Part shown: in pieces, positions 28,690 through 60,953 of the stretch | Layout: each line of letters begins with the position of its first letter | Position numbering within the stretch: the stretch's first letter is position 1 | NCBI GenBank assembly: GCA_903872185.1 | Contig: CAIQJL010000375.1 | Coordinates: 1 to 61,359 of the forward strand | DNA: 61,359 bases | Direction of reading: 5' to 3' | Origin: an uncultured Bacteroidota bacterium | Lineage (GTDB): Bacteria > Bacteroidota > Bacteroidia > Bacteroidales > GWA2-32-17 | Translations under genes and position numbers: made by a program | The notes under the pieces: model-generated | Told to the model about the DNA's origin: nothing | Seen by the model: the letters and a program-made list of their open reading frames with translations, nothing else | Database searches by the model: none

Positions 28690-31600
28690 ATGACTGACAA
28701 ATTTTCCATAATTGAGATCAACAGATTATATCAAATAATTGAAAAAGATTTTAGCGAGAGAAAAGAGATATTTGGAATTCCTGAAGAACTTTTTTTCAGA
28801 CCATCAAAAAACGATAATTTTAAAATCTCACGTTATGGGCAAATTATAGAATCACCTATTGGAGTGGCTGCTGGTCCACATTCTCAAATGGCACAAAATA
28901 TAATCTCCGCCTGGCTTTGTGGTGCAAGATATATCGAATTAAAAACGATTCAGACTCTTGATGAAATTAATGTTTCAAAACCCTGTATTGACATGCAGGA
29001 TGAGGGCTATAATTGTGAATGGTCACAGGAACTTAGAATTCATGAAACATTTGAAGAATATTTAAAAGCATGGATACTAATTCATATCTTAAAACACAAA
29101 TTAAACTTTGAAAAAAGCGAAGATATTGGTGTTATTTTTAACATGAGTGCAGGTTACAATATGGAAGGGTTGTTAAAAGAAAATGTACAATGGTTCTTTA
29201 GTAAAATGGAGAATTGTAAACAAGAAAAAGAAAAATATATTGAATTACTAAAACCACTTTATCCGGAAATTGCAAACATTGAAATTCCAAATAGAATTAC
29301 TGACAACATTACTTTATCTACAATGCACGGCTGTCCACCAGAAGAAATTGAAAATATTGGACTATATCTTATTAACGAAAAGAAACTCAACACTACAATT
29401 AAACTAAATCCTACACTACTTGGATCAAAAGAATTAAGAGAAATTTTAAACGCAAAACTTGGTTTTAAAACTGAAGTACCTGATATTGCTTTCGATCACG
29501 ATTTAAAATATGCTGACGCTTTAAAACTTATTAACTCGCTACAGCAAGCTGCTGATAAAAACAACGTTCAGTTTAATCTTAAACTTACTAATACTTTAGA
29601 AAGCATAAATAACAAAAATATCTTCTCTGCCGATGAGAAAATGATGTACATGAGTGGTCGTGCTCTACACCCTATAAGCATAAACCTTGCTAAGAAATTA
29701 CAAAATGAATTTAATGGTAAATTAGATATTTCTTTTTGTGCAGGAGCCGATTGCTTTAACATTTCTGACATTCTAAATTGTGGTCTTCAACCAATAACAA
29801 TTTGTTCGGATATTTTAAAACCTGGTGGATATGGCCGACTTATACAATATATTGAGAATATCAGAGAAAATAAAACTGTAACAAATAAACTTGAATTTCT
29901 TAACAAATATGCAGATGAAGTTATTTCTGAAAAAGCATATATCCGTGACTCATTCCACACACCTGATATTAAAACAAACAGAGAATTAAATTATTTTGAT
30001 TGCATTCACCCTCCTTGTGTCGATACCTGCCCAACAAATCAAGACATACCCGATTATTTATACTTAACCTCAATTGGCGAATTCGAAAAAGCATTTGAAG
30101 TAATACTTAAAAAAAATCCTTTTCCAGCATCTTTAGGAATGGTTTGCGACCATCTTTGTCAATCTAAATGCACAAGAATAAACTATGATGACAGCATACA
30201 AATAAGAGAAGTAAAACGATTTATTGCAGATTATGGGAGCAACGAGAATTTCTTAAAGCCAGCAAAAGAAAACGAATTTAAAGTTTCTATAATTGGTGCA
30301 GGTCCATCAGGTCTAGCTTGTGCATATTTCTTAAGACTAGCTGGATTTAAAGTTAATGTTTACGAGACTAAAAATATTGCAGGCGGAATGGTTGCAGATG
30401 CTATTCCGGCATTCCGCCTTAGAAAACAATCTATAGAAAAAGATATAGAAAGAATTAAAAACCTTGGAGTAAATATTCATTATTCAAACAAAATTGATTC
30501 TTCATTTTTTGAAAATATCCAGAAAGAAAGCGATTTCATTTATCTTGCTACTGGCGCGCAAAAATTTAAAAAACTTGACATTGAAGGCGAAAGTTCAATT
30601 GGTGTTTTAGATGCTTTTAATTTTCTGTATTCTGTTAAAAACGACAAACACATTGAACTCGGAAAAAATGTTATAATAATTGGCGGTGGAAATACTGCAA
30701 TGGATGTTGCACGTACTGCAAACAGACTCATTCATACAAATGGAAAAGTAACTGTTGTATACAGAAGAACGATACACGAAATGCCTGCCGATGCTGAAGA
30801 AATTGCAGCATTAATTGATGAAGGAATAGAAATAATAGAACTATCTGCACCGGAAAAAATAGTTTCAGAGAACGGAAAAACAACAGCATTAATTTGCTCA
30901 AAAATGAAACTAGGAGAACCAGATTCTTCAGGTAGAGCAAAACCAATAAAAATTGAAAACTCAGAATTTACTATTAATGTAGATTCAATTATTCCTGCAT
31001 TAGGACAAGATGTAGACATTGATTTTATAAAACCTGAATTGCTAAAAACAAATCCTAATAGCTACGAAACACAAATTAAAAATATTTTCATTGGTGGCGA
31101 TGCAATGCGAGGTGCTGCAACAATAGTAAAAGCTGTTGGTGATGGTAGAAAGGTAGCTTCTGAAATATTAAATCGTACTGGCATAAATTATAATTTTGAA
31201 CCCGAAAAAGTAAATCGTGGTTTAAAACACAAAGATTATATTATTAAAAAATCTACTCGCAATAAATCAGAACAACTTACAGAATCTGCAATTGAAAACA
31301 GAAAGAATTTTAATATAGTAATTTCTCCACTAACGAAAGAGCAAGCGGTTACTGAAGCCAAACGTTGCTTACTTTGCGATGATGTTTGCAATATATGCGT
31401 AACAGTTTGCCCAAATCGTGCAAATTATAGTTACTTTATTGAACCAAAAAACATAATTATATATAAAGCAATAAAAAGTTGCGAAACAATAAATATTGAA
31501 AAAGCAGGAATATTAAACCTTTCACAAAATACTCAGGTTTTAAATATTGGCGACTTTTGCAACGAATGTGGCAATTGCACAACATTTTGCCCAACAAATG

Positions 31601-31911
31601 GAAAACCATTTAAAGATAAACCTAAATTTTACCTGAGCGAAAAAAGTTTTAAAGAAATTGAAAATGGATTTACTATTAACAAAACACTAAACAATACAGT
31701 TTTATTTCATAAAACATACAATGAAACAAGCTGTCTGTGCTTAGTTGACAATGAATTTGTTTATGAGTCAAAACATGTAAAAGCAACATTTAACAAATCC
31801 GATTTCACAATTAAAAATGTTGAATTCTTAAATGACAATATTGAAGAATTCGAATTCACAGACGCTGCTAATATGTTTGCTTTATTTGATGCTGCAAAAA
31901 ATCTATATTAA
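28690..31911 (+). CDS. ygfK: YgfK-family flavin/Fe-S oxidoreductase (often annotated putative selenate reductase subunit)
   Basis: GVAAGPHSQMAQNI, KPCID..DEGYNCEWSQEL, STMHGCPPEEIE, MYMSGRAL, GltD-like GAGPSG/GGGNTAMD, C-terminal CNICVTVCPNRAN and CNECGNCTTFCP. Confidence 0.92.
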   Translation: MTDKFSIIEINRLYQIIEKDFSERKEIFGIPEELFFRPSKNDNFKISRYGQIIESPIGVAAGPHSQMAQNIISAWLCGARYIELKTIQTLDEINVSKPCIDMQDEGYNCEWSQELRIHETFEEYLKAWILIHILKHKLNFEKSEDIGVIFNMSAGYNMEGLLKENVQWFFSKMENCKQEKEKYIELLKPLYPEIANIEIPNRITDNITLSTMHGCPPEEIENIGLYLINEKKLNTTIKLNPTLLGSKELREILNAKLGFKTEVPDIAFDHDLKYADALKLINSLQQAADKNNVQFNLKLTNTLESINNKNIFSADEKMMYMSGRALHPISINLAKKLQNEFNGKLDISFCAGADCFNISDILNCGLQPITICSDILKPGGYGRLIQYIENIRENKTVTNKLEFLNKYADEVISEKAYIRDSFHTPDIKTNRELNYFDCIHPPCVDTCPTNQDIPDYLYLTSIGEFEKAFEVILKKNPFPASLGMVCDHLCQSKCTRINYDDSIQIREVKRFIADYGSNENFLKPAKENEFKVSIIGAGPSGLACAYFLRLAGFKVNVYETKNIAGGMVADAIPAFRLRKQSIEKDIERIKNLGVNIHYSNKIDSSFFENIQKESDFIYLATGAQKFKKLDIEGESSIGVLDAFNFLYSVKNDKHIELGKNVIIIGGGNTAMDVARTANRLIHTNGKVTVVYRRTIHEMPADAEEIAALIDEGIEIIELSAPEKIVSENGKTTALICSKMKLGEPDSSGRAKPIKIENSEFTINVDSIIPALGQDVDIDFIKPELLKTNPNSYETQIKNIFIGGDAMRGAATIVKAVGDGRKVASEILNRTGINYNFEPEKVNRGLKHKDYIIKKSTRNKSEQLTESAIENRKNFNIVISPLTKEQAVTEAKRCLLCDDVCNICVTVCPNRANYSYFIEPKNIIIYKAIKSCETINIEKAGILNLSQNTQVLNIGDFCNECGNCTTFCPTNGKPFKDKPKFYLSEKSFKEIENGFTINKTLNNTVLFHKTYNETSCLCLVDNEFVYESKHVKATFNKSDFTIKNVEFLNDNIEEFEFTDAANMFALFDAAKNLY

Positions 31912-31914
31912 TAT

Positions 31915-31943
31915 TCTAATCGTAGTTTGAAACTACGATTAGA
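31915..31943. repeat. Perfect 13-bp inverted repeat just after the ygfK stop (terminator or REP-like)
   Basis: TCTAATCGTAGTT-tga-AACTACGATTAGA; no U-tract. Confidence 0.55.
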
Positions 31944-31978
31944 TATTAGACTTTAAAATATTTAGATTATCAATCTTT

Positions 31979-32041: not shown

Positions 32042-32053
32042 GCAAAAAGTTTA

Positions 32054-33973
32054 TCACAATTTAACAAATCTCTCACTTAAATTAATCTCGTTACCAACAA
32101 TAGTAATCCCATAAACACCTTTTTCTAAAGCGCTAACATTAACAACTGTTTCATTTTGGCTTGATGTCATTCTTTTTAATAAAACACCTTGCATATTGTA
32201 AATTAATATTTCTGTAGATGAAGAAACTTTTGAAAGTATTTTAATATTTAAATCATTTGTTACAGGATTGGGATAAATATCAATTTTATGTAAATCTGCA
32301 TTTAAATTCTCAGAACTTACAGGATATCTAACAAAAACAGATATTGTAGTATCGTAAGTACAACCGAAATCATCTGTTGCAGAAAAAGTATATGCAACAT
32401 CACCAGTTACTGTTGGGGTTGCAGTTCCTATACCATTTTCCTGAGAAATAATTCCATTTCCTGACCATGAATAATTTAGTGAATCATAACTATTTCCAAA
32501 AGACCATAATGGTGGAACAATTAAAGGATTAAAATTTAACATCCAGTAAAAAAGATAACCATCATCAGCACCAAGATGATCGGTAATATGAATCGTCCAG
32601 TCACCATTTAATGGACAACCTATTAAATTTGTAAATGGAGTTTCGGGCGCATAATTTCCAGCGGGAATAAAATATGCTCCGGTAATAACATTCCCTTCCA
32701 GATCAGTAAAATTATGCTGGGTTGTACTTGCAACGCCAGGCAGAGTAATTGTATCAACTGGTGTCCAATTATAAGTATAACCTATTCCTGGGCTTGTAGC
32801 TGGTGTTATATCACATGGCTCACCTAAATGAGTCATACCTGCAGAAGGATAGCCAACAGGAGGAGTACAAGTGGTACATGTCCAATTATAATGACCAATC
32901 AAATTTACCGCTTGCCCATTCGGGCATGTTAGCCAAACTTCTAAATCACCTAAATATGAATGCTCAATATTCATTGTTAAAGATTGCAAATCAGAAACAC
33001 CAGTATATACTTGCCCCGGAGCAAATATTGTTTGTGTTAAAGTAGTAGTATATGTTACACCACTACCATCAGGAATTAACACTAAACTGGAAACTACTGT
33101 TGGAATTGGTTGAGTCCATGTATTTGTTGTTGCCTCCCCAATTAAATTTACAGATTGCCAAAATGTTATTGTATCCTGAACTATTGTAGCACCTGCAAAT
33201 ATTGGTGTGGTTGAAATCATTACCATATTTCGTGAGTAATTTGAATTATGACAACCACCTATATCAATACCAGAAACAGTCGTATAAAAACCACCACCAT
33301 TAGGAAACACATGGGTTACATTTGAAAGCCCTGCTCCAGTCTGCACAGGTGATCCATCACCAAAATCCCAGGTAAAAACAATATTTGTATCTGATTGATG
33401 ATAATATAAATCATTATTTGTATAGGTACCAGCAGCATTAAAGGTTATAGACTGATTTTGGCATGCTCGTATTGTATCACCATTAAAATAGGGCATATTG
33501 GCACCAGTAATGTTTACATCAAAAGCCTGACAAGGATATGTACAAGAAATTGTAGCTTCCCATCCAGCCATGGAAACAGACCCATCTGAAGTAAAAACTA
33601 AGGTCAAACAACCACTTCCCTGAGATGTAATAGCTTGTCCTAGTAAAGCGGTTGCAGTTCCAGTTGCAGTTAAAATTATTAACCCTGCCGCTGAACTACC
33701 TTCATGAATTACTAAATTGTCAAAATTATTTTCAAGAACAAATTGTGTGAAGATCAATGACACCTGAGCACCAGGCAATGCAGCACAAATTGTTAAAGTT
33801 AAATTTTCACTAGCTTGATATGTTCCAACTGCTCCACCTGAATCATAAAAAGTACCACCGCAAAGACTAACTGAAGTATCATGCATAAGCACAACCTGCG
33901 CTTTTAAATTTAAACTATGTAAACTTATAATAACAATAATTACACAGCTACAAAATATTTTAAATAAATTCAT
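32054..33973 (-). CDS. T9SS-secreted protein (CUB-like, PKD, proprotein-convertase P-like domains, type A CTD)
   Basis: Signal peptide; FYDSGG..G.Y, LVFTSDGS...GWEA.ISC; WDFGDG; IEHSYLGDL...LTCPNG; IYPNP...YNMQG...KGVY...RFVK. Confidence 0.88.
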   Translation of the reverse strand: MNLFKIFCSCVIIVIISLHSLNLKAQVVLMHDTSVSLCGGTFYDSGGAVGTYQASENLTLTICAALPGAQVSLIFTQFVLENNFDNLVIHEGSSAAGLIILTATGTATALLGQAITSQGSGCLTLVFTSDGSVSMAGWEATISCTYPCQAFDVNITGANMPYFNGDTIRACQNQSITFNAAGTYTNNDLYYHQSDTNIVFTWDFGDGSPVQTGAGLSNVTHVFPNGGGFYTTVSGIDIGGCHNSNYSRNMVMISTTPIFAGATIVQDTITFWQSVNLIGEATTNTWTQPIPTVVSSLVLIPDGSGVTYTTTLTQTIFAPGQVYTGVSDLQSLTMNIEHSYLGDLEVWLTCPNGQAVNLIGHYNWTCTTCTPPVGYPSAGMTHLGEPCDITPATSPGIGYTYNWTPVDTITLPGVASTTQHNFTDLEGNVITGAYFIPAGNYAPETPFTNLIGCPLNGDWTIHITDHLGADDGYLFYWMLNFNPLIVPPLWSFGNSYDSLNYSWSGNGIISQENGIGTATPTVTGDVAYTFSATDDFGCTYDTTISVFVRYPVSSENLNADLHKIDIYPNPVTNDLNIKILSKVSSSTEILIYNMQGVLLKRMTSSQNETVVNVSALEKGVYGITIVGNEINLSERFVKL

Positions 33974-34277: not shown

Positions 34278-35756
34278 ATGATAAAGATTGAAAACAAGAT
34301 CGTTAACCACGATATAAGAAAGAAAGCAATTGAGCGTTTACGCGAAAAAGGTATTGTACTTCCTACTTATGCTCAAATGAGAGATCCTCAATTAATTCCT
34401 GAAAAGATTAAAGACAAATTAAAAAATATTGGATTATGGGAACTTAATCCACTTAACCTTTTCCGCATTAACTGGCACAACGAGCCAAAAGAAACAGGTG
34501 GTTTATTTGGTGGCGTAAATTATATTGAAATCCCAAAAGAAATAACAGGAATTGACACGCGCATTGTTCTTATTGTAGGCAAATGGTTTCCTACAGGTGC
34601 ACATAAAGTTGGGGCTGCATATGGTTGCTTAGCTCCAAGAATTATTTCAGGCCAATTTGATCCTACTTATAATAAAGCTGTTTGGCCATCAACAGGAAAT
34701 TATTGTCGTGGTGGTGCTTTCGACTCATATTTAATGGGTTGTACTGCTGTTGCTATTCTACCTGAAGAAATGAGTAAAGAACGTTTTGCTTGGTTAAAAG
34801 ATATTGGTGCTGAAGTAATTGCTACCCATGGCTGCGAATCAAATGTAAAAGAGATTTATGACGCATGCTGGGATATTAGAAAAAACAGAAAAGATTGTAT
34901 TATTTTTAATCAATTCGACGAATTCGGAAATCCTTGCTGGCATTATAATGTAACAGGTTATGCATTAGAGGAAGTTTATAATAAAATTAAAACTCCAAAA
35001 TCAAAATTTGCCGGATATATTTCAGCTACAGGATCTGCAGGAACTATTTCAGCAGGTGATTTCTTAAGAACAAAACATCCACACATTAAAGTTGCTGCAT
35101 CTGAAGCATTACAATGCCCAACTCTTTTAATGAATGGTTTTGGCGGACATAGAATTGAAGGTATTGGCGACAAACATGTTCCATGGGTACATAATGTTAA
35201 GAATACTGATGCAGTTGTTGCTATTGATGATGAAGATTGCATGAGAATTTTCAGACTTTTTAATGAAAAAGAAGGAAAACAATATTTAAAATCAATTGGA
35301 ATTAGTCAAGAAAATATTGATTCACTAGAATTATTGGGCATTTCAGGAATTTCAAACATGCTATCTGCAATTAAAACTGCAAAACATTTTGAAATGACTT
35401 CTGATGATGTTATTATGACAATTGCAACAGATTCAGCAGTTATGTATCAGTCACGTCTTGAAGAATTGGCAGCTGATAAAGGCGCATATTCAAATATTCA
35501 AGCTGTAAAAGATTATGAAAAATGCCTTTTAGGAACAAAGGCTGATTATATAAAAGAGTTGACATATAACGACCGTAAAATGATTCATAATCTGAAATAT
35601 TTTACATGGGTAGAACAACAGGCAAAAGATGTAGAAGATTTAAATCAGTTATGGTACGACAGAGAAATCTGGGATCAAATATTCCATCAGGATGTTAAAC
35701 TTGATGAAATGATAAATGAATTTAACGAAGAAACCGGAGTTCTTAAGAATTTATAA
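34278..35756 (+). CDS. Fold-type II PLP-dependent enzyme (cysteine synthase/TrpB superfamily, extended), function unassigned
   Basis: FPTGAHKVGA (PLP Lys), PSTGNY, NQF, SATGSAGT phosphate loop, HRIEGIGD. Confidence 0.85.
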   Translation: MIKIENKIVNHDIRKKAIERLREKGIVLPTYAQMRDPQLIPEKIKDKLKNIGLWELNPLNLFRINWHNEPKETGGLFGGVNYIEIPKEITGIDTRIVLIVGKWFPTGAHKVGAAYGCLAPRIISGQFDPTYNKAVWPSTGNYCRGGAFDSYLMGCTAVAILPEEMSKERFAWLKDIGAEVIATHGCESNVKEIYDACWDIRKNRKDCIIFNQFDEFGNPCWHYNVTGYALEEVYNKIKTPKSKFAGYISATGSAGTISAGDFLRTKHPHIKVAASEALQCPTLLMNGFGGHRIEGIGDKHVPWVHNVKNTDAVVAIDDEDCMRIFRLFNEKEGKQYLKSIGISQENIDSLELLGISGISNMLSAIKTAKHFEMTSDDVIMTIATDSAVMYQSRLEELAADKGAYSNIQAVKDYEKCLLGTKADYIKELTYNDRKMIHNLKYFTWVEQQAKDVEDLNQLWYDREIWDQIFHQDVKLDEMINEFNEETGVLKNL

Positions 35757-35782: not shown

Positions 35783-37027
35783 ATGAACAATAAATTCCAT
35801 TTCTTATGTGTTGATTGTGGTAAAATTATAAATTCAACGAAGGTTGAATATTTATGCAATGACTGCGAAAGCAATAATAGCGTATCACAACCACCACAAG
35901 GAGTTTTAAAAACAGAATATAATTTCTCCGAAATTAAATCAAGATTACATGAAGGTATTTTTAACAAATTAGAAAACACAGGCTTTATTGACATATTACC
36001 AATTAAATCAATTAATAGCCTACCTTATTTAAAAGTTGGAAATACACCGTTATATAATGTTACAGAATTAAACAAAACTGAATTAAATTTTAGTTTATTA
36101 CTTAAAGACGATTCTCAGAATCCAACTTTTTCATTTAAAGACAGAGCTTCAGCTATCGTCTCAGCGTATGCAAAAGAAAATAATATTGATACAATTGTTG
36201 CGGCATCAACTGGTAATGCGGGTTCTTCTTTAGCAGGAATTTGTGCTGCGCAAAAACAAAGAGCAATAATTTTTGTTCCGGCGAATGCACCAAAAGCAAA
36301 GCTTACTCAAATAATGATGTATGGAGCTCAAATTGTGCCGGTAAATGGAAATTACGATACAGCTTTTGACTTAAGTATTGAAATTACAAAGAAATACGGT
36401 TGGTATAATCGTAATACTGCATTCAATCCATTAACTATTGAAGGCAAGAAAACTGTTTCTTATGAATTATATTCACAGTTAAATCAATCTTTGCCTGATA
36501 GAATATTTGTACCTGTCGGCGATGGAGTAATAATTTCGGGAGTATACAAAGGCTTTGAAGACTTATTAAAACTTGGAATAATAAAAAAGATACCTACCAT
36601 TGTCGCAGTTCAGGCATTTGGGAGTAGTAATATAATAAACAACCTTAATCGTCAAGAGTTCATTTCAACTCCAAGTAAAACAGTTGCAGATTCAATTTCT
36701 GTTAATATTCCAAGAAATTTCAGAATGTCCAAAAAATATTTGCAAACTTTTGAAGGCGAAAACATATTGGTTAATGATGATGAAATAATTGCAGCCTCAA
36801 AAGTATTAAGTAGCAATACAGGCATTTTTACTGAACCAGCTGCAGCTACAGCATTCGCAGGATTCCTGAGTTATTACAACAATAACAGATTGAAGAAAGA
36901 AAGTAAAAATGTAGTTATACTAACAGGTAGCGGACTAAAAGACTTAAATGCAGTTCAATCAATAATAAATATTCCAAACCCAGTAAATCCGACTATTTCT
37001 GATGTCGAAAGATTTCTAAATTTATAA
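35783..37027 (+). CDS. Threonine synthase-like PLP enzyme with N-terminal Zn ribbon
   Basis: CVDC...CNDC, GNTPL, NPTFSFKDRAS, ASTGNAG, EGKKT, VPVGDG, EPAAA, LTGSGLKD. Confidence 0.87.
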   Translation: MNNKFHFLCVDCGKIINSTKVEYLCNDCESNNSVSQPPQGVLKTEYNFSEIKSRLHEGIFNKLENTGFIDILPIKSINSLPYLKVGNTPLYNVTELNKTELNFSLLLKDDSQNPTFSFKDRASAIVSAYAKENNIDTIVAASTGNAGSSLAGICAAQKQRAIIFVPANAPKAKLTQIMMYGAQIVPVNGNYDTAFDLSIEITKKYGWYNRNTAFNPLTIEGKKTVSYELYSQLNQSLPDRIFVPVGDGVIISGVYKGFEDLLKLGIIKKIPTIVAVQAFGSSNIINNLNRQEFISTPSKTVADSISVNIPRNFRMSKKYLQTFEGENILVNDDEIIAASKVLSSNTGIFTEPAAATAFAGFLSYYNNNRLKKESKNVVILTGSGLKDLNAVQSIINIPNPVNPTISDVERFLNL

Positions 37028-44944: not shown

Positions 44945-44947
44945 TTG

Positions 44948-49095: not shown

Positions 49096-49109
49096 ATATT
49101 CAGTTTCTT

Positions 49110-50045: not shown

Positions 50046-50212
50046 ATTAACACACTTAAGAACAATCAATAAATTAAATAATAGTTAACAAATATAAAAA
50101 ATACTTTTACAATAATTGGTTTGTAATTAAATGTTTAATTACATATATTTGAATATTATTGATTATTATCAATGATTTAGATTTTAACAACGTGAAATTA
50201 ATTTAAACACAC

Positions 50213-50767: not shown

Positions 50768-50815
50768 ACTTAACAATATTCAATTTTCATTATAGAGTGC
50801 TTCTGAAAAAAGAAA

Positions 50816-51391: not shown

Positions 51392-51401
51392 TATTTGGCA
51401 T

Positions 51402-51632
51402 TTGTTACCGACTATAAAATTTATATCCTATAAGAAATTAATTGTTCTTGTTGCAAACTAGATAGCAATTCTATTAGTAATGCTTATATGGTCTAATTTT
51501 AATGTAAATAAAAACGAAATTGATTCATACCTGTTTTTATCATTATGGGCATTTGTTGCTTACTATGAATTTTCTAAACTTATACTGGTTCCTTCAATAT
51601 TAATTATTGAAAAATGGACTATAAATTTTTAA
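51402..51632 (+). pseudogene. Possible remnant of a membrane-protein gene (or 50-aa ORF 51480-51632)
   Basis: Hydrophobic frame LLPT...VAN*IAILLVMLIW...INF with an internal TAG at 51459-51461. Confidence 0.25.
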
Positions 51633-51798
51633 AAATGAAAACATAAATATTTTCATTTCAAACTTTATTTTTTACTATCGCCTTAGGTGAAACACCTAAC
51701 AAAAAATCGTTAAATAACAGATTAAACTCTTCTTATATTTGACAAAAGTTTTATTAAAAAAAGTTCACAAAATAAATGTTACTATTTAATATTCCTTT

Positions 51799-53952
51799 AT
51801 GGAAAATAAAAAAATAAAACTTCGTAAAAAAGCAGAAGAAAAACATGAACAGGAATCTAGCATTCCTGATAAAAGCATTGTAGACGCTAATGCACTTAAG
51901 TTTTACCATGAACTTGAGGTGCATAAAATTGAACTTGAACTACAAAATGTAGAGCTAAAACTTGCAAAAGAAAATGCTGATATACTTGCAGAAAAATATT
52001 CAGAATTATATGATTTTGCACCTTCTGGTTATGTTACACTTTCTAGCGAAAGAATAATTATTGAACTTAATCTTTTAGCATCAACTTATCTAGGAAAAAA
52101 TAGGGGAGAATTATTAAATAAAAGTTTTTTACTCTTATTAAATGAAGAATCAAAATATATTTTTGATGTATTTATAAAAAAAATATTAACGTCAAATAAA
52201 AATGAATCTTGTGAAGTAATAATTACTCAGAATCGAAATTCGCCTTTACACATTCTTTTATCTGGTATTGTGAAACAAAATGAGAATAATTACTATATAT
52301 CTTTAACAGATATAACATATCGAAAACAGATAGAAAACGTTCAATTATTTTTGCTGCAGAATAAAAGATATGATGATTATAGTAATTTTTTTGAATCTAT
52401 AACAAAGTATCTCTCGCAAACATTAGGTATGGAATACGTTTGTATAGAAAAATTGGAAGATGATGGATATACAACACAAACATTAGCTGTTTGCGATGGT
52501 AAAAATAACTTTTCACATGTATCATTAAATTTAAAAGAAACTCCTTTTGATTTTTTTATTGGAAAAACAAGTTGTTATTTTCAAGATAGTGTAAGCGAAA
52601 TATTTCCTAAAAATACATTATTTAAATATTTAAAGGCAAAAAGTTTTATTGGTGTAACAATATATAGTTTTATTAATAAGCCTATCGGATTTATTGCAGT
52701 TATTGGGAAAAAACCTATAGATAACCCTGCTTTAGTTGAAACAATATTGAAATTAGTTAGCATGCGTGTTGCAAGAGAGCTGGAAATAATTCATACTCAT
52801 AACATTTTAATAAAAGCAAAAGAAAAAGCTGAAGAAAGTGACCGTTTAAAATCGGCATTTCTGGCAAATATGAGCCACGAAATTAGAACTCCTATCAGTG
52901 GAATTTTAGGGTTTGCATACTTTCTTAAAAATCAAGAACTTTCTTTTGAAACGCAAAAAGAATATATTTCTATAATAGAAAAAAGCGGACTGCGTATGCT
53001 GAATATTATTAATGATATTATAGTTATATCAAAAATTGATGTTGGTATTTATGACATTGATATTACTGCTACTAATATAAACGAGCAAATTGAATTTATT
53101 TATTCTTTTTTTAAGCCTGAAGCAGAATTAAAAGGATTAAAATTTAAATTAAATAACAATATAACAAAAGAAGGAATTGTTTTAAATACAGACAAAGAAA
53201 AGATATACTCAATTCTTACTAACATTATTAAAAATGCTATTAAATTTACCAATAAAGGAGTTATTGAATTTGGTTACAACATAAAAGATGATTTTCTAGA
53301 GTTTTATATAAAAGATACAGGAATTGGCATTAACATTGTTCAGCAAAAAATTATTTTTGAAAGGTTCAGACAAGGTAGCGAGTCATATTCAAGAGAATAC
53401 GAAGGGTCGGGTTTAGGATTATCTATATCAAAAGCTTATGTTGAATTATTAGGTGGTAAAATATGGGTAGAAAGTGAACGAGGCATAGGATCTACCTTTT
53501 ATTTTACTTTGCCTTATGATAAAGTTTCTGCAAATAATCTTAGCATAATAAATGACACAGAAAATTTTGAAGAAAATAAAGTTTTAAGAAGTTTAAAAAT
53601 ACTCATAGTTGAAGATGATAACATAATAGAAAAAATAATAACATTAAAAGTAGAAAAATACAGTAAAGAAATTTTAAGAGCAAATAATGGACTTGATGCG
53701 CTTAGAATTTGCAAAAATAATTTAGATATAGATTTAATTTTAATGGATATTAAATTACCTATTATGGACGGATACGACTCTATACGTCAAATACGAAAAT
53801 TTAATGCAGGTGTAATTATTTTTGCGCAAACAGCCTATACTTTTGATAACGACAGACAAAAAGCATTCGATGCCGGATGTAACGAATTTATTACAAAGCC
53901 TTATGAAAGAGATATAATAGAAAAATTAATTGAAGAATATTTTAAAAAATAA
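51799..53952 (+). CDS. Cytoplasmic hybrid histidine kinase (PAS-GAF-HisKA-HATPase-REC)
   Basis: ELEVHKIELELQN..L, YDFAP.GY, FLANMSHEIRTP, NAIKFT, DTGIG, GSGLGL, LMDIKLP, KP. Confidence 0.92.
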   Translation: MENKKIKLRKKAEEKHEQESSIPDKSIVDANALKFYHELEVHKIELELQNVELKLAKENADILAEKYSELYDFAPSGYVTLSSERIIIELNLLASTYLGKNRGELLNKSFLLLLNEESKYIFDVFIKKILTSNKNESCEVIITQNRNSPLHILLSGIVKQNENNYYISLTDITYRKQIENVQLFLLQNKRYDDYSNFFESITKYLSQTLGMEYVCIEKLEDDGYTTQTLAVCDGKNNFSHVSLNLKETPFDFFIGKTSCYFQDSVSEIFPKNTLFKYLKAKSFIGVTIYSFINKPIGFIAVIGKKPIDNPALVETILKLVSMRVARELEIIHTHNILIKAKEKAEESDRLKSAFLANMSHEIRTPISGILGFAYFLKNQELSFETQKEYISIIEKSGLRMLNIINDIIVISKIDVGIYDIDITATNINEQIEFIYSFFKPEAELKGLKFKLNNNITKEGIVLNTDKEKIYSILTNIIKNAIKFTNKGVIEFGYNIKDDFLEFYIKDTGIGINIVQQKIIFERFRQGSESYSREYEGSGLGLSISKAYVELLGGKIWVESERGIGSTFYFTLPYDKVSANNLSIINDTENFEENKVLRSLKILIVEDDNIIEKIITLKVEKYSKEILRANNGLDALRICKNNLDIDLILMDIKLPIMDGYDSIRQIRKFNAGVIIFAQTAYTFDNDRQKAFDAGCNEFITKPYERDIIEKLIEEYFKK

Positions 53953-53964
53953 ATTATCTTTTAT

Positions 53965-54328
53965 TGTCATGGCGTACGCCTCGGCGAATTGATCCGCCAT
54001 CTTTTTATAGGATAAGTTGCATTGAGCTTTATGTTATGTAATTATACAAAAACTTCCTGTAGTTCTCGATTAAACTCGAACAAGCATTGTAGGTATCTCG
54101 ATTCAAATTCTATATGCTACTTCGTCCGCCGTGGCAAATGCGAAGCGTATCAAGAAGTAAATAAGTTAAAATTTGAAATAAAAAAGACGTACAAATTGTA
54201 CGGCTTTTTTATTAGTAAAATTCTTTCACTCACCACTCCATTCGACATGGTGAGCGTCCGCCACGGCGGATCGAACCATGGACCCTTCGATGGAGTTTAT
54301 CCTGACGAAGGAAGGGCTCAGGGTAAAT
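53965..54328. repeat. Dense cluster of nested palindromic repeats
   Basis: GC-rich hairpins at 53965-54002, 54062-54081, 54112-54150 and 54235-54328; three copies of a TCCGCCnnGGCGGA unit. Confidence 0.72.
54181..54210. terminator. Probable bidirectional terminator
   Basis: AAAAAGACGTACAA/TTGTACGGCTTTTTT between the convergent kinase and ygeW genes. Confidence 0.6.
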
Positions 54329-54340
54329 ACGGATGCTTTG

Positions 54341-55531
54341 TTATAATATTATTCTTTCTCTTTTTTGATTATATAACTTTTCTAAAATAGCACCAGCATT
54401 TTTAAATTTGTTATTTAGAATCATTGAAGCAATAATATAAGGTTTAAAACCAGCCTCTTTATAAGTTTCAATACGGTATCTTTCAAAAACGGTGTCGGCT
54501 ACTTCGCCCTCTTTGCATGAAACATTAGAGATATCAGCAGGTAAACAATGCATATATAAAGCTTTACCATCTTTGGTAAGTTTCATTTTTTCTTCGGTGC
54601 ATTCCCAATTTTTAAATTTCGCATTATTAGCAAGACATTCCTGCTCAAGCGATTTTAATCCTGCACTATCGTTATTCTGTAAAAGTACAGTTCTGCGTTC
54701 CATAACTTTATATGGTGCCCAGCTCTTTGGATAAACAATATCAGCATTTTTAAATGCATCATCCATTGAGTTTACAACATTAAATTTACCACCTGAATGT
54801 GCCGCATTTTTCTTAGCAATTTCAACAACTTCAGGTATTAGTTCGTAGCCTTCAGGATAAGCTAAATCAACTTCCATTCCCATACGGGTCATTAAACCAA
54901 TAATGCCCTGAGGTACTGATAAAGGTTTGCCATAACTAGGAGAATAAGCCCAGGTCATTGCAATTTTTTTGCCTTTTAAATTCTCAAGTGAACCGAAATA
55001 ATTTTTAAGGTGTAACAAATCAGCCATTGATTGTGTTGGGTGATCAATATCACATTGTAAATTCACAATACCAGGGCGCGAAGGAAGTACACCATTTTTA
55101 AATCCATCATCTAGAGCTTCGCCAACTTCAACCATGTAAGTGTGACCAGCGCCTAAATACATATCATCTCGAATTCCAATAACATCAGTCAAAAATGAAA
55201 TCATATTTGCAGTTTCGCGAACAGTTTCACCATGTGCAATTTGTGATTTACCTTCATCCAAATCCTGAACTTCTAACCCTAAAAGATTACAAGCTGACGC
55301 AAACGAAAACCTAGTTCTTGTTGAGTTATCACGGAAATTAGAAATTGCCAAACCCGAATCAAAACATTTTGCAGAAATATTATTATCACGAAGATGTTTT
55401 AATGCTTCAGCAACTAATAAAGTCTGCTTTAATTCTGCTTCTGTTTTGTCCCATGTTAAAAGAAAATCTTTTTCAAAAAGTCCGGTGTTAAGATTTTTAA
55501 TCTCTGAAATTAATTTGTTGAATTCTGACAT
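54341..55531 (-). CDS. ygeW: Knotted carbamoyltransferase YgeW
   Basis: FRDNSTRTRFSF, HGETVRETANMISF, DHPTQ, WAYSPSYGKPLSVPQG, YPKSW, MHCLPAD. Confidence 0.96.
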   Translation of the reverse strand: MSEFNKLISEIKNLNTGLFEKDFLLTWDKTEAELKQTLLVAEALKHLRDNNISAKCFDSGLAISNFRDNSTRTRFSFASACNLLGLEVQDLDEGKSQIAHGETVRETANMISFLTDVIGIRDDMYLGAGHTYMVEVGEALDDGFKNGVLPSRPGIVNLQCDIDHPTQSMADLLHLKNYFGSLENLKGKKIAMTWAYSPSYGKPLSVPQGIIGLMTRMGMEVDLAYPEGYELIPEVVEIAKKNAAHSGGKFNVVNSMDDAFKNADIVYPKSWAPYKVMERRTVLLQNNDSAGLKSLEQECLANNAKFKNWECTEEKMKLTKDGKALYMHCLPADISNVSCKEGEVADTVFERYRIETYKEAGFKPYIIASMILNNKFKNAGAILEKLYNQKRERIIL

Positions 55532-55773: not shown

Positions 55774-56961
55774 TTAAATCATATACGCATAAGCTGCATA
55801 GAATGCTGAAGCAGCAACAAGATCGCTAACTGGAACCTTTTCATTTGGAGCATGAGCAAGAACTTCATTACCTGGCCCAAAACCAATTGTTGGAATTTTA
55901 TACATTCCATTTGTTGCTATTCCATTAGTAGAAAATGTCCATTTATCAATAAAAGGCTTTTTGTTAAATAAACCTTCAAAAGCCTGAACTCCCGCCTGAA
56001 CAACATGCTCACCTTCTTCAATTTTCCATGTAGGATAATATTTTTCCATTCCGTATTTTAAACCGGTATACGCAAGTTCCTCGTAATACAAAATCTCGAC
56101 TGTTGCATCCATACCTTTTACTATTGCTTCAATTTCAGAAACAGCAGATTCTTTAGTCTCTCCCCATGTTAAACGTCTGTCCAAATGAAACTGAGCATAA
56201 TCAGCAACAGCGCATAACGAAGGACTTCCAGATTTTATTTCGGATATTGTTACAGAACCTTTTCCTAAAAATGGATCGGTTCCTAATCTTTCATTTAATT
56301 TTTCAATTTCAAGTGCAGCACGGGCAGCCATATATATTGCATTTTTTCCTCTTTCTGGTGCACTACCATGACATGAAACACCACGGAATTTTACAACAAT
56401 TTCCATTCTTCCTCTGTGCCCACGATAAATATTGAGGTTAGTTGGTTCTGTACTTATTACAAAATCTGGACGTAATTTTTCTTCCTCTACAATATATTTC
56501 CAGCAAAGGCCATCGCAATCTTCTTCCATAACACTACCCACAACATAAACTGTAAGGTCTTTATCAAAACCAAGTTCTTTTAATATTTTTCCAGATGTTA
56601 CAGCAGCAGCTGGTCCACCTTCCTGATCAACGGTTCCACGACCATGCACAAAACCATCTTTTATTTCCCCTGAAAAAGGATCGAAACTCCAGTTATCAAT
56701 ATTCCCAACATCAACAGTGTCCATGTGTCCGTCAATAGCAAGTATACGTTTTCCATTTCCAATTCTCCCAATTACATTTCCAAGACCATCAATTCGCACC
56801 TCGTCAAAGCCAGCTTCTTCCATCTGTCGTTTAAGTTCCAACTGAACATCTTTCTCGTTCATACTGGTTGATTTTATCTTTATCAGCTTTGATAAATTAT
56901 TGGCAGTATAGTCTTTATACTTTTCTGCAAGTGCATTTATTTTACTAAAAATTTCGTTCAT
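55774..56961 (-). CDS. ygeY: YgeY family M20 metallo-amidohydrolase
   Basis: DGHMDTV, GRGTVDQEG, MEEDCDG, STEPT, RGHRGRME, SCHGSAPERG, WTFSTNG, AHAPNE. Confidence 0.94.
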   Translation of the reverse strand: MNEIFSKINALAEKYKDYTANNLSKLIKIKSTSMNEKDVQLELKRQMEEAGFDEVRIDGLGNVIGRIGNGKRILAIDGHMDTVDVGNIDNWSFDPFSGEIKDGFVHGRGTVDQEGGPAAAVTSGKILKELGFDKDLTVYVVGSVMEEDCDGLCWKYIVEEEKLRPDFVISTEPTNLNIYRGHRGRMEIVVKFRGVSCHGSAPERGKNAIYMAARAALEIEKLNERLGTDPFLGKGSVTISEIKSGSPSLCAVADYAQFHLDRRLTWGETKESAVSEIEAIVKGMDATVEILYYEELAYTGLKYGMEKYYPTWKIEEGEHVVQAGVQAFEGLFNKKPFIDKWTFSTNGIATNGMYKIPTIGFGPGNEVLAHAPNEKVPVSDLVAASAFYAAYAYMI

Positions 56962-57141: not shown

Positions 57142-57166
57142 GGGTATTGAGAGTAAGTACATATTT

Positions 57167-59494
57167 TTAATTTCTCAATTTGTTTCTTATTTTTTCAGAC
57201 GAAAGCAATATTACCTCATATGTTGCAGGCAAAGTAAAATCAGGCTCAATAGCATGATTTCCAACTGCTGAAATAGCATCTTTTATAGCCAACCATACAG
57301 AAAATGCAAGCATAAACGGTGGTTCACCAACTGCTTTACTTTTTAAAATTGTTCCTGAATTTGGTGCATTTTTTAATAATTCAACTCTGAAATCTTTTGG
57401 TATATCATTTACAGTTGGAATTTTATAAGTATCGGGAGAATGAGTTGTAAGATTTCCATTTTTATCCCATTTCAACTCTTCATTTGTAACCCAACCTACA
57501 CCTTGAATAAATGCCCCTTCAACTTGTCCGATGTCTATTCCCTCATTTATTGAATTACCAACATCATTAAGAATGTCAGTTCGTAACAATTTATATTGTC
57601 CAGTTAAAGAATCTATTTCAACTTCAGAAACTGACATTCCATATGAAAAATAATAGAACGGATTCCCTTGCCCTTTTTCTCTGTCAAAATAAATTCCAGG
57701 TGTTTTGTAATAACCTGTAGAACTTAAGCTGACTTGTTTGATATATGCAGTTTTAATTATTTCGTTAAAAGAGATTTTATTTTGTGGAAATAATTTATCG
57801 AAAATAAAATTATTCTCAAAAATTACATTTTCTTTAAGTATTTTGTTATGAGTAAATTTTCTTTCAAATTCAGAAACGACAACTTCTAGAAGTCTAGATT
57901 TAATAATATCTATGGCATTCTTTACAGCCATCCCGTTTATATCACTTCCCGAAGAAGCTGCAGTTGGTGAAGTATTAGGAACCTTTGAGGTATTTGTTGC
58001 ATTTACTTTTATTCTATCTGGCGAAATACCTAATTCAACAGAAGCTACCTGCAACATTTTAGTATGAAGCCCCTGCCCCATTTCTGTTCCACCATGATTA
58101 ACCAAAACTGTTCCGTCTGTATAAATATTAACCAATGCACCGGCCTGATTTAAAAATGAAGTAGTAAACGAAATACCAAACTTAACAGGAGTAATGGCCA
58201 AACCTTTTTTTACAAATTCGTTCTCGTTGTTATATTTATCAATTTCATTTCTTCGTTTAGAATATTCCGAAGATTTTATAAGTTGGTCATACAATACAAA
58301 TAATCTGTTATTATCTATCTTCTGACCATAAGGAGTAAAATTATTTTTATAAATGTTATAAAAATTCAAAAGTCTGATTTCTGCACTATCTTTTTTCAAG
58401 TAACGTGCAATCATATCAATACAATTTTCAATAACTGCCATTCCCTGTGGTCCACCAAAACCACGATATGCTGTGTTTGATGGAAGATTAGTTTTCCATG
58501 CTCTGCCAATAATCTGAACATCTGGAATAAAATATGAACTGTCTGCATGCAACATTGCCCTTTCAAGTATTGCCATTGAAAGATCTGTTGCAGCGCCAGC
58601 ATCAGTATTTATTTCAACTTTATATGCAAGAATTTTGCCTGAATCATCAAAACCTATTTCGTATTTTGAAAGACAACGATGACGTTTACCTGTCATAATT
58701 TGGTCATCATCTCTGAATAAATGAATTTTCACAGGTCGTTTTGTTGCATTGGCAAGTAATGCAGCCCATGCAGCAACATGATTTCCCTGAGTTTCTTTTC
58801 CACCAAAGCCACCACCCATGCGCTTAACTTCAACCTCAACTTCATTTTTAGAAATGCCTAAAACTTCGGCAACAATAGCCTGTGTTTCGGTAGGGTTCTG
58901 GCTTGAAGCATGAACCATCATTTCTTTTCCCTCACCCGGAACAGCAAGTGCAGTTTGAGTCTCGAGATACCAATGTTCTTGTCCATTTGTTTTTAATTCC
59001 CCTTTAAATGTATGCTGTGAATTTTTTAAAACGACATCAACATTTCCCCTTTCAATCTTTCTTTGAGGAGCTAAAATATTATTTTTTGCAATTGAAGTTT
59101 CAATATCTAAAATTGCATCAAGAGTTTCGTATTCAACTTCGATTAGCTTTTCTGCTTCAATTAATGCTTCTTTATTTTCTGCTGCGATTAAAGCAATTGC
59201 TTGTCCAATAAAATTCACAACTTTCTCAGCAAGACATGGTTCATCATGAACTACAGGTCCCATCTGATTTTCACCAGGAATATCTTTTGCAATTATAACA
59301 GCGTGTACACCTTTTACCTTTAATGCTTTCTTTATATTAATTTTCTTAATTTTTGCGCGGGCATACTTGCTAAATACAACTTTACCTAACAAAAGTTGAC
59401 TACTCATCAGCATATCGTTAATGTATACCGATTCACCGGTTACATGCTTTATTGCGCTATCGTGATGTATCTGATCTGACATCTCTAATTTCAT
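57167..59494 (-). CDS. xdhB: Xanthine dehydrogenase molybdopterin-binding subunit (start at ATG 59494 or 59482)
   Basis: HDSAIKHVTG, GQEHWYLE, RMGGGFGGKETQ, TAYRGFGGPQG, FGISFT..LNQAGAL, GGTEMGQG, SPTAASSGSD, KAVGEPP. Confidence 0.95.
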   Translation of the reverse strand: MKLEMSDQIHHDSAIKHVTGESVYINDMLMSSQLLLGKVVFSKYARAKIKKINIKKALKVKGVHAVIIAKDIPGENQMGPVVHDEPCLAEKVVNFIGQAIALIAAENKEALIEAEKLIEVEYETLDAILDIETSIAKNNILAPQRKIERGNVDVVLKNSQHTFKGELKTNGQEHWYLETQTALAVPGEGKEMMVHASSQNPTETQAIVAEVLGISKNEVEVEVKRMGGGFGGKETQGNHVAAWAALLANATKRPVKIHLFRDDDQIMTGKRHRCLSKYEIGFDDSGKILAYKVEINTDAGAATDLSMAILERAMLHADSSYFIPDVQIIGRAWKTNLPSNTAYRGFGGPQGMAVIENCIDMIARYLKKDSAEIRLLNFYNIYKNNFTPYGQKIDNNRLFVLYDQLIKSSEYSKRRNEIDKYNNENEFVKKGLAITPVKFGISFTTSFLNQAGALVNIYTDGTVLVNHGGTEMGQGLHTKMLQVASVELGISPDRIKVNATNTSKVPNTSPTAASSGSDINGMAVKNAIDIIKSRLLEVVVSEFERKFTHNKILKENVIFENNFIFDKLFPQNKISFNEIIKTAYIKQVSLSSTGYYKTPGIYFDREKGQGNPFYYFSYGMSVSEVEIDSLTGQYKLLRTDILNDVGNSINEGIDIGQVEGAFIQGVGWVTNEELKWDKNGNLTTHSPDTYKIPTVNDIPKDFRVELLKNAPNSGTILKSKAVGEPPFMLAFSVWLAIKDAISAVGNHAIEPDFTLPATYEVILLSSEKIRNKLRN

Positions 59495-59501
59495 TAAATT
59501 C

Positions 59502-60953
59502 TTAATTCTGTTTTGTTTCAAGATAAAACTTGAGCAATAGATTTTTTGCTGCTGTGCTTCTGAACTCAGCTTCTGAACGTGCATCCGATAATGGAGTAAA
59601 TTCTTTTTCCAAAGTTTTCATGGCTGTTTCAACATTTTCGCGATTCCATTTCTTGCCAGTCAGCAATTTTTCAGTTTCTTTAGCACGCTTTGTTACGGCA
59701 GCCATTCCACCAAATGCGAGTATTATTTCATCAACATTTTCCCCATTCAATTTCAACTTAAATGCTCCACTAACAGTGGAAATATCCATATCTTTTCTTT
59801 TCGAAATCTTATATGAATTAACTAAATAGGTTTTTTCTGATTTCGGAATTATAACTTCTGTTATTAATTCGTCATTTATTAAATCAGTTTGACGATAACC
59901 TTTAATAAAATCTTCAATTTCAACAATTCTTTCCGAATTTTCTGATTGCAACTTAATTTTAGCACAATGTGCAAATAAAACCGGAAGTGTATCGCCAATT
60001 GGAGATGCAGAGCCAACATTACCACCAATAGTTGCAACATTCCGAATTTGTAAAGAACCAAAAACGTTTAATATTTTATTCAATGCTGGAAATTTTTCTA
60101 TTGAATAATTTCTTACCTGTTCTATTGTTATTCCGGCACCAAAAACAATATTATTATTTTCTTCTTTAATGCATTTTAATTCAGGCACACTTGACAAATC
60201 AAGTATTTCAGTAAACAATTCATTTTTCTTTGTCTGGCGCAAAGCAATATCAGTAGAACCATTTATAATTATAGCATTTGGATTTTCTTTTCTTAATCTT
60301 AATGCTTCTGATAATGTAAATGGTTTAAAATACTGCTGCAATTTGTTTTTTAAAATTAATGTATCAGTATTTGAATTTATCTTTTTCAATAAATCAATTA
60401 CCTCTATCTCATTTTTAGAAAAATGATCATCACCATTAGTTACACATGCCTTTTGTGCTGCTTCAATAATAGGCTTATATCCTGTGCAACGGCATAAATT
60501 TCCGGTTAATGCATCTTCTATAACTTCTCTAGTTGGATTTTGATGGTTCTTATAAATCCCAAATAATGACATTACAATACCTGGAGTACAATATCCACAT
60601 TGGCTGCCATTAGTCTCAACCATTAATTGCTGAACAGCATGAAGTGATTTTTCGTTATTTTCAATTACTGCTATATTTTCAACAGTAATTAATTGCTTTC
60701 CATGAATCATAGGCAAAAAAACAAGGCAGGAATCAAGAGTTTTATAAACCAATCTTTCATTTTCACCGATTTCTGCAATTACAATCGTACATGCGCCACA
60801 ATCGCCCTCTGCACAACCTTCTTTTACACCTTTGTGTTCAGGAAATGAACGCAAATAATTTAAAACAGTTGTAGTTGGTTTTAGTTCATGGTATTTTGAA
60901 AAATCAACTTCTCTGATCTTACCATCTAAAACAAAACGAACAGTATTTTTCAT
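59502..60953 (-). CDS. xdhA: Xanthine dehydrogenase small subunit (2x[2Fe-2S] + FAD)
   Basis: KEGCAEGDCGAC, SQCGYCTPG, GNLCRCTGY, GSTD, QIRNVATIGGN..ASPIGD, YKISKR..DIS. Confidence 0.95.
   Translation of the reverse strand: MKNTVRFVLDGKIREVDFSKYHELKPTTTVLNYLRSFPEHKGVKEGCAEGDCGACTIVIAEIGENERLVYKTLDSCLVFLPMIHGKQLITVENIAVIENNEKSLHAVQQLMVETNGSQCGYCTPGIVMSLFGIYKNHQNPTREVIEDALTGNLCRCTGYKPIIEAAQKACVTNGDDHFSKNEIEVIDLLKKINSNTDTLILKNKLQQYFKPFTLSEALRLRKENPNAIIINGSTDIALRQTKKNELFTEILDLSSVPELKCIKEENNNIVFGAGITIEQVRNYSIEKFPALNKILNVFGSLQIRNVATIGGNVGSASPIGDTLPVLFAHCAKIKLQSENSERIVEIEDFIKGYRQTDLINDELITEVIIPKSEKTYLVNSYKISKRKDMDISTVSGAFKLKLNGENVDEIILAFGGMAAVTKRAKETEKLLTGKKWNRENVETAMKTLEKEFTPLSDARSEAEFRSTAAKNLLLKFYLETKQN

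Follow-up and report, generated by a model that had tools for sequence, protein, structure and literature searches.

A 61,359-nt stretch of DNA from an uncultured Bacteroidota bacterium (order Bacteroidales; GenBank assembly GCA_903872185.1, contig CAIQJL010000375.1), referred to in its full length as the window, carries between positions 28,690 and 60,953 a gene cluster that is probably a Bacteroidales version of the reductive (2,8-dioxopurine) pathway of purine and urate degradation, as judged from the families, order and distribution of its genes. The gene content of this cluster, its conservation among relatives and the co-occurrence of its components across genomes are directly observed, and they reveal a lineage-typical variant with two features that contradict current generalisations about the pathway, namely its selenium dependence and the role of YgeX as its end enzyme. 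The anaerobic urate pathway was worked out in 2025 in Escherichia coli and clostridia, where it was reported to be selenium-dependent and to end with YgeX. In the conserved form found in environmental Bacteroidales, the selenium-maturation genes are missing, selenophosphate synthetase is often missing as well, and YgeX is replaced by two pyridoxal phosphate (PLP) enzymes, designated here PLP1 and PLP2.

Pathway genes and their conserved order

Gene calls were scored with Pfam and NCBIfam models against curated (equivalog) cut-offs, and E. coli K-12 proteins were compared with the whole genome by tblastn. An initial annotation of this DNA had named ygfK, a molybdenum (Mo) hydroxylase gene, ssnA, hyuA, ygeY and ygeW and had recognised in them a set of the reductive urate/2,8-dioxopurine type; all six genes lie where it placed them, and five of the six encoded enzymes exceed equivalog cut-offs. 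YgfK (28690..31911, + strand; 1073 amino acids, aa) is an FeS/FAD/FMN flavoenzyme of the 2,8-dioxopurine reductase type that scores 921.4 bits with TIGR03315 (cut-off 835.3) and shows 36% identity to E. coli YgfK across 1034 aligned columns. The same strand encodes a fused [2Fe-2S] and molybdopterin hydroxylase of the Se-type Mo group (37045..39612; 855 aa; TIGR03311, 885.3 versus 830.45), which has no adjoining FAD subunit gene, and HyuA (42266..43636; 456 aa), a member of the D-hydantoinase/dihydropyrimidinase family (TIGR02033, 540.7 versus 393.25) with 36% identity to E. coli HyuA. On the opposite strand are the genes for the knotted carbamoyltransferase YgeW (54341..55531; 396 aa; NF005538, 733.9 versus 453) and the M20 amidohydrolase YgeY (55774..56961; 395 aa; NF009555, 538.9 versus 321), which are 73% and 54% identical to their E. 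coli counterparts. The sixth enzyme is an SsnA-family amidohydrolase (39762..41030, + strand; 422 aa), which is divergent, with 377.5 bits against NF005540 (cut-off 444) and 336.3 bits against TIGR03314 (cut-off 455.5). SsnA is its best family by more than 260 bits (next family, 112.6 bits), and the protein, 32% identical to E. coli SsnA over the full length, is the only match to that protein in the genome.

A canonical xanthine dehydrogenase that the initial annotation did not name adjoins ygeY on the − strand. Its molybdopterin subunit XdhB (57167..59584; 805 aa; TIGR02965, 1015.2 versus 849.5) and its FeS/FAD subunit XdhA (59502..60953; 483 aa; TIGR02963, 549.1 versus 467) likewise exceed their equivalog cut-offs. 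No xdhC gene follows xdhA in the window, in contrast to the related locus L012.

By homology to the enzymes of E. coli and Clostridium, a route can be proposed in which XdhAB would convert hypoxanthine and xanthine to urate, and the fused FeS-Mo hydroxylase, a candidate urate/2,8-dioxopurine oxidoreductase, would remove the C6 oxygen of urate to give 2,8-dioxopurine. YgfK would then reduce the ring, the SsnA-like amidohydrolase would open the pyrimidine ring, and HyuA would open the hydantoin ring to yield 2,3-diureidopropionate, from which YgeW and YgeY could remove the two carbamoyl groups. Carbamoyl phosphate from YgeW would provide ATP through a carbamate kinase whose gene is on another contig, and PLP1, by CysK-like beta-elimination/replacement chemistry, together with the threonine-synthase-like PLP2, would produce pyruvate and ammonia from 2,3-diaminopropionate or a ureido-alanine. 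A search of the genome for uricase found none.

Related loci were collected with the SsnA-like protein as the query against species-representative genomes. Of the 575 relatives recovered, the best 80 were used, and the window proteins were compared with their loci by tblastn at a query coverage of at least 50%, with counts limited by contig ends and by the 10-kb flanks. These 80 relatives are 65-91% identical to the query, and nearly all derive from entries titled Bacteroidales, Bacteroidetes or Bacteroidota metagenome-assembled genomes (MAGs), the other titles being Lentimicrobiaceae, Rikenellaceae, Draconibacterium, Saprospiraceae, Flavobacteriaceae, Lutibacter and 'Chlorobi'. The loci exhibit a recurrent order of YgfK, a divergent AsnC/Lrp regulator, PLP1, PLP2, Mo enzyme, SsnA, a 207-aa membrane protein, HyuA and a convergent YgeW-YgeY pair, after which some loci continue with an XdhC-family gene (9 of 80) or with XdhB-XdhA. 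The Mo enzyme, the 207-aa protein and HyuA were each detected in 44 loci, PLP2 in 38, PLP1 in 33, YgeW in 23, and YgeY and YgfK in 20 each, and XdhA was present in 7, with the xdhB-ygeY adjacency of the window repeated in L012, L069 and L079. The window departs from this lineage order by three local changes only: a gene for a type IX secretion system (T9SS)-sorted protein in place of the regulator, a cupin gene and a 10.7-kb insert.

For the wider distribution, we examined an order-level sample of 151 genomes, comprising the genome of the window and 150 others of the same order at about one per family, and a phylum-wide sample of 401 Bacteroidota genomes. The gene set had been described as not typical of Bacteroidota, which holds for well-sampled groups, as YgfK exceeds its cut-off in 14 of the 401 genomes and in 0/87, 0/28 and 0/21 genomes of the three most-sampled families, but does not hold for the window's own order, in which 33 of 151 genomes carry YgfK.

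Could the cluster instead degrade a related N-heterocycle, such as another oxopurine, a pterin or a pyrimidine-like compound, with the same families acting on a different ring? Several observations favour this alternative and weigh against urate. The SsnA-like protein falls below both of its curated cut-offs; TIGR03311 is named for xanthine dehydrogenase, not for 2,8-dioxopurine specifically, and so leaves the substrate of the Mo enzyme unfixed; and that enzyme shares no more than 24% identity with E. coli XdhD. In addition, the genome contains no credible purine permease for urate or xanthine (one NCS2 match of 27.7 bits; no tblastn match at 1e-5 to XanQ, UacT or GhxQ), and the end enzymes are unlike those of the characterised pathway. 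Yet YgeW and YgeY are very near the E. coli enzymes that act late in urate breakdown, YgfK exceeds its equivalog cut-off, and a canonical, urate-making xanthine dehydrogenase adjoins the cluster in the window and in the three relatives named above. We regard a different ring as decidedly unlikely, and urate or 2,8-dioxopurine would be the substrate of the cluster.

The window and the E. coli K-12 uricolytic cluster, ygeW-ygeX-ygeY-hyuA-yqeA / yqeBC-mocA-ygfK-ssnA-ygfM-xdhD (PMC12507026), have homologues of YgfK, SsnA, HyuA, YgeW and YgeY in common, and both would follow the same chemistry in converting 2,8-dioxopurine to diureidopropionate and in the steps beyond. Unlike the E. coli cluster, the window lacks YgeX, YqeB, YqeC, adjacent YqeA and MocA, the YgfM FAD subunit, permeases, guaD and YgfT/YgfS. 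Its Mo enzyme is of another subtype, TIGR03311 and not TIGR03313 (215 versus 1101.9 bits), and the window has PLP1, PLP2 and a GNAT-fold-bearing membrane protein in addition. The 2,8-dioxopurine cluster of Clostridium sporogenes and C. difficile has YgfK, SsnA, HyuA, YgeY and YgeW in common with the window, and C. difficile XdhD, as described by Li et al. (2025; PMC12507026), resembles the window enzyme in being a fused FeS-Mo hydroxylase that lacks an FAD subunit. In contrast to the clostridial cluster, YgeX is replaced, YqeB and YqeC are lacking throughout the sampled order, and SelD is missing in a substantial fraction of carriers, as detailed below.

Li et al. (2025) used SsnA as the marker of the pathway, with a network built from IPR017700, and place it in Pseudomonadota, Bacillota, Chloroflexota, Actinomycetota, Spirochaetota and Elusimicrobiota. 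The SsnA of Bacteroidota lies below the cut-off of the matching model TIGR03314, and we infer that this may be why the group was missed. Bacteroidota go unmentioned in the main texts of Li et al. (2025) and Liu et al. (2025), the supplementary tables of which may list MAG phyla, and a preprint by Liu et al. (2022), which screened a library of gut strains, states that urate consumption was 'notably absent in Bacteroidetes'. If the present reading is true, anaerobic urate breakdown would extend to about one in five of the family-level lineages sampled from an order scored as non-uricolytic in gut screens, and its confirmation would widen the view of purine-nitrogen recyclers in anoxic sediments and waters. 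A preprint on uricolysis by Prevotella copri reports no homologues of the known genes and was set aside as unrelated to the cluster.

The cross-phylum identity of YgeW (73%) is far above that of the other pathway enzymes (32-54%), and this could reflect either very strong constraint or fairly recent transfer. Base composition was tried as an indicator of recent horizontal transfer and gave no signal, with GC values of 0.323 and 0.334 for the cluster and 0.308 for the genome (sd 0.019, 5-kb windows).

Missing genes and the terminal step

The initial annotation had reported the window to be without ygeX, carbamate kinase, a purine permease, selD, yqeB, yqeC and mocA, which we confirmed, and had viewed the cluster as a variant form of the pathway. 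This view is borne out by its conservation in relatives and by the genome-wide absence of ygeX, yqeB and yqeC, but genes for carbamate kinase, SelD, an XdhC-family protein and a MocA-like protein do occur on other contigs. Because the window is an entire contig (C375) of its genome (G000; 4.30 Mb, 407 contigs, 30.8% GC), whether a gene lies just outside it can be tested only genome-wide. The possibility that the cluster is a standard one, with ygeX, yqeB and yqeC merely unassembled or located on neighbouring contigs, would fit this fragmentation, the coincidence of the window with a whole contig and the discovery of four of the sought genes elsewhere, and the number of contigs also renders any single absence weaker evidence for our interpretation than the order-level counts. 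The genome, however, is rated 100% complete with 2.2% contamination, and the three genes were not found anywhere within it; among the 151 genomes of the order, YqeB and YqeC were never found, even in closed genomes that carry the cluster, and diaminopropionate ammonia-lyase was detected in only 3 (at E 1e-40 or better). A standard cluster obscured by assembly gaps is thus extremely improbable.

The carbamate kinase gene lies on contig C127 (396.7 bits versus a cut-off of 358.25), adjoining an ornithine carbamoyltransferase gene and moaC/moaB, and it was found in none of the 80 related loci. It is nevertheless present in 33 of 33 genomes with YgfK and in 77 of the 118 others, so its absence from the cluster is a matter of linkage and not of the pathway.

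YgeX itself, the diaminopropionate ammonia-lyase, was not found in the genome, in which the best match to TIGR03528 reaches 37 bits (cut-off 532) and E. coli YgeX yields by tblastn only a 46-bit match, inside PLP2. The genes for PLP1 and PLP2 sit between ygfK and the Mo enzyme gene. YgeX/DpaL (NF006058, TIGR01747), whose reaction completes the pathway by yielding pyruvate, is a PLP enzyme of fold type II, and PLP1 and PLP2 share its fold type and an equivalent place in the cluster; in contrast to the lyase, PLP1 is CysK/CBS-like and PLP2 is ThrC-like, and neither matches the lyase models. In Li et al. (2025), 'YgeX' was marked in genome neighbourhoods by Pfam PF00291, which cannot separate these families and would also count PLP1 and PLP2 as 'YgeX'.

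PLP1 (34278..35756, + strand; 492 aa; PALP, 54.8 bits) consists of a CysK/CBS-like core with N- and C-terminal extensions. It retains the PLP lysine (K110, in PTGAHKVG), an STGN substrate loop and a GSAGT phosphate loop, and its score with the cysK model TIGR01139, at 99.7 bits, is far under the cut-off of 350.95 for a cysteine synthase. An AlphaFold (AF2) model (pLDDT 94.9) was compared with known structures using Foldseek, and its core matches beta-cyanoalanine synthase, CysK and cystathionine beta-synthase (CBS) with TM(target) up to 0.87 (0.86 to 3vc3), leaving about 170 terminal residues without a structural match. PLP1 shares with the O-acetylserine sulfhydrylase/beta-cyanoalanine synthase/CBS family its fold, PLP lysine, STGN loop and glycine-rich phosphate loop, but differs from it in its 21-25% identity, its extra end residues and its purine-catabolism context. 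More than 8000 database relatives exist, and the best 120, at least 73% identical, bear no more specific name than 'pyridoxal-phosphate dependent enzyme' or 'cysteine synthase'.

PLP2 (35783..37027, + strand; 414 aa) is a threonine-synthase-like PALP enzyme that scores 175 bits with TIGR00260 (cut-off 167.1) and does not reach the cut-offs of the other ThrC equivalog models (NF006050, 214.7 versus 303). It carries an N-terminal four-Cys zinc ribbon, and the cysteines C9, C12, C25 and C28 and the lysine of SFKDR do not vary. A prediction of a PLP1-PLP2 complex (score 0.00, mark 0.32) counts neither for nor against binding.

Both proteins track YgfK closely across the order. PLP1 occurs in 36 of the 151 genomes, comprising 31 of the 33 with YgfK and 5 of the 118 others, and in four of these five the YgfK matches are split or below the cut-off; the two YgfK genomes without PLP1 are G107 and G143. 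PLP2 occurs in 35 genomes, again including 31 of the 33 and only 4 of the 118, and its two absences among YgfK genomes are in G063, where the contig ends at that point, and in G100, which is 77% complete. Moreover, in locus L088 a true diaminopropionate ammonia-lyase (NF006058, 437.6 versus 276) lies upstream of the Mo enzyme at the usual place of PLP1 and PLP2, and neither of these occurs within the 20.8 kb examined. G107 carries the ammonia-lyase and PLP2 without PLP1.

These associations must be weighed against another explanation, in which one or both PLP enzymes do not act on diaminopropionate: PLP2 would be a threonine synthase, and PLP1 would be cysteine-synthase-like or a sulfur or selenium donor for the molybdenum cofactor, with the genes co-located for regulation only and the C3 product handled by another enzyme or excreted. 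PLP2 exceeds a ThrC cut-off and is the only ThrC-family protein to do so in its genome, and it is the sole ThrC-family match (E 1e-20 or better) in three near-complete relatives (G074, G106 and G057); it could thus double as, or simply be, threonine synthase. Bit scores in the order separate canonical ThrC (231-322) from PLP2-type proteins (148-198), and canonical ThrC, present in 69 of the 151 genomes, is rarer in those with YgfK (8/33) than in the others (61/118). Every CysK-type motif is kept in PLP1, and in locus L179 a true ammonia-lyase lies 1.3 kb from a PLP1 homologue, with G063 carrying both enzymes. The standing of PLP2 among ThrC-family matches, the rarity of canonical ThrC alongside YgfK, the CysK-type motifs and the proximity of the lyase to PLP1 count for this alternative and against a terminal role for the two proteins.

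On the other side, the near-perfect tie of PLP2 to YgfK argues for a role in the pathway, and PLP1 follows the same pattern. The eight YgfK genomes with canonical ThrC carry PLP2 in addition, and ThrC is often dispensable in the order, given that a ThrC-family match of E 1e-30 or better is lacking in 53 of the 151 genomes. In the genome of the window, tblastn detected no match to E. coli ThrB or ThrC, a search that did not extend to the non-orthologous homoserine kinase of Bacteroidota, and the homoserine dehydrogenase gene adjoins a methionine-pathway gene. Finally, the ammonia-lyase of L088 stands in for both PLP genes at once. A function of PLP1 or PLP2 unconnected with diaminopropionate is, on this evidence, rather unlikely. 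PLP1 looks like an unrecognised component of the pathway and is a candidate for the terminal beta-elimination step, and confirmation would make the two proteins testable candidates for a new way of ending it. As an observation in its own right, the 53 genomes without a ThrC match suggest either frequent threonine auxotrophy or an unrecognised enzyme.

The association of PLP1 with purine-catabolic genes extends to distant homologues, and the protein is not restricted to Bacteroidota. A search with a single homologue (P0130, 44% identical) as the query gave 80 metagenome loci with a median GC of 0.69, in which PLP1 homologues that are 40-48% identical occupy high-GC contigs. Of the 45 loci that exceed 7 kb, 24 carry one or more pathway genes and 19 carry two or more, with SsnA in 17, the Mo enzyme in 16, a YgeW-like gene in 11, carbamate kinase in 9, HyuA in 8, and YgeY, YgfK and YgeX in 2, 2 and 1, respectively; in 8 loci a distant PLP2-like gene directly follows PLP1. 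The rarity of YgeY at these loci raises the speculation that PLP1 might act on ureido-alanine, releasing urea, rather than on free diaminopropionate.

Selenium and maturation of the molybdenum enzymes

The combination of YqeB and YqeC with SelD marks the selenium-dependent Mo hydroxylase system. According to Liu et al. (2025; 10.1101/2025.04.24.650524), all library strains with the cluster had YqeBC and SelD, and the C. sporogenes DOPDH was inactive in a selD mutant. This combination was not found here, as neither YqeB nor YqeC was detected in the genome of the window, and each occurs in 0 of the 151 genomes of the order. SelD exceeds its cut-off in 63 of the 151 genomes, including 19 of the 33 with YgfK (58%) and 44 of the 118 others (37%), and is thus missing from 14 of the 33 carriers, in which selenophosphate would be unusable. 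One carrier without SelD (G074) is a closed, single-contig genome with contiguous YgfK-PLP1-PLP2-Mo-SsnA-HyuA genes, and a recheck of 5 of the 14 genomes at a lax threshold returned only paralogue matches of 49-74 bits (cut-off 125).

We infer from these distributions that the Bacteroidales form is independent of the known selenium-cofactor machinery, and the Mo enzyme is most likely matured by an XdhC-type chaperone and equipped with a sulfido, not a seleno, molybdenum cofactor. A point to be set against this is the occurrence of SelD in 19 of the 33 carriers and in the window's own genome, such that the organism itself may use selenium. Its selD gene, on contig C143 (locus L008, 9614-11678), adjoins and overlaps mnmH, which encodes tRNA 2-selenouridine synthase, and selD is therefore accounted for without any link to the Mo enzyme. 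If selenium independence is true, the anaerobic breakdown of urate is uncoupled from the selenium-cofactor trait, and a confirmed selenium-free version of the key dehydroxylase would be relevant to engineered uricolytic strains.

A broader proposal combines both departures from the known pathway: PLP1, usually with PLP2, would be an unrecognised 2,8-dioxopurine-pathway family present in several phyla that converts ureido- or diamino-propionate to pyruvate, and the Bacteroidales form would be selenium-independent and XdhC-matured. We advance this combined statement tentatively, with the odds somewhat against its being correct in every part.

A third Mo hydroxylase operon is present on contig C347 (locus L096, 60-5184), where genes for a MocA-like transferase, an XdhC-family chaperone, an FeS-Mo subunit and an FAD subunit occur together. 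The FeS-Mo subunit (933 aa) is closest to the alpha subunit of 4-hydroxybenzoyl-CoA reductase (817 bits, below the cut-off of 994.55), and a fourth Mo hydroxylase of the genome is encoded on C86. C347 holds the only XdhC-family gene in the genome and the only match to the MocA-like query, so these two proteins may mature all four Mo hydroxylases. At two loci from 'Chlorobi' MAGs (L055 and L060), a gene for an XdhA-like FeS/FAD subunit lies directly upstream of the genes for the fused Mo enzyme and SsnA, which suggests a sub-variant that possesses an FAD subunit.

Local insertions and neighbouring genes

The initial annotation had also remarked on extra genes embedded in the cluster, including two PLP enzymes, a cupin and a 'YgjV-like fusion'. 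All are present, and the PLP enzymes and the 207-aa protein to which the last term refers are conserved, but the cupin is not. The 207-aa protein (41552..42175, + strand) begins with three transmembrane helices and continues into a GNAT-fold domain, matches no Pfam or NCBIfam family, and recurs between ssnA and hyuA in the related loci. Its AF2 model (pLDDT 79) retrieves GNAT acetyltransferases by Foldseek (E 1.9e-5, TM(target) 0.70). The gene is thus real and conserved, but the YgjV label rests only on an Atlas look-alike cluster termed 'YgjV family', in which PF10688 is found on 16% of members. As the genome yielded no credible purine permease, this protein might conceivably act in transport or sensing.

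The three changes peculiar to the window affect genes of other kinds. A T9SS-sorted PKD/P-domain protein (32054..33973, − strand; Por_Secre_tail and PKD domains), found in 0 of the 80 related loci, is encoded where the AsnC/Lrp regulator stands in 16 of them. The Cupin_5 (DUF985) protein (41058..41561, + strand; PF06172, 186.6 bits) recurs in a single locus, that of the closest relative (L009). The 10.7-kb insert (43649..54340) lies outside the cluster proper and, by its Pfam and NCBIfam matches, encodes an RND efflux pump (outer-membrane protein, permease and adaptor), small unknown proteins, a phosphatase and a hybrid histidine kinase; it is present in 0 of the 80 loci, and in relatives the convergent ygeW-ygeY pair comes immediately after hyuA. 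The cupin, serine hydroxymethyltransferase (SHMT), TauE and the RND pump were considered as pathway parts and ruled out, with counts of 1, 0, 0 and 0 among the 80 loci.

The first 28 kb of the window contain housekeeping genes, among them dnaN, clpXP, the trigger factor gene and genes for GldF/GldG-like ABC parts. The latter, a GldG-like (ABC_transp_aux) and a GldF-like (ABC-2) gene at 7257-9742 on the − strand, are unrelated to the cluster and are consistent with the chromosome of a gliding member of the Bacteroidota. At the far end of the contig, a truncated gene (61254-61358, − strand) encodes a C-terminal tail that, by eye, resembles what we take to be a T9SS sorting domain.

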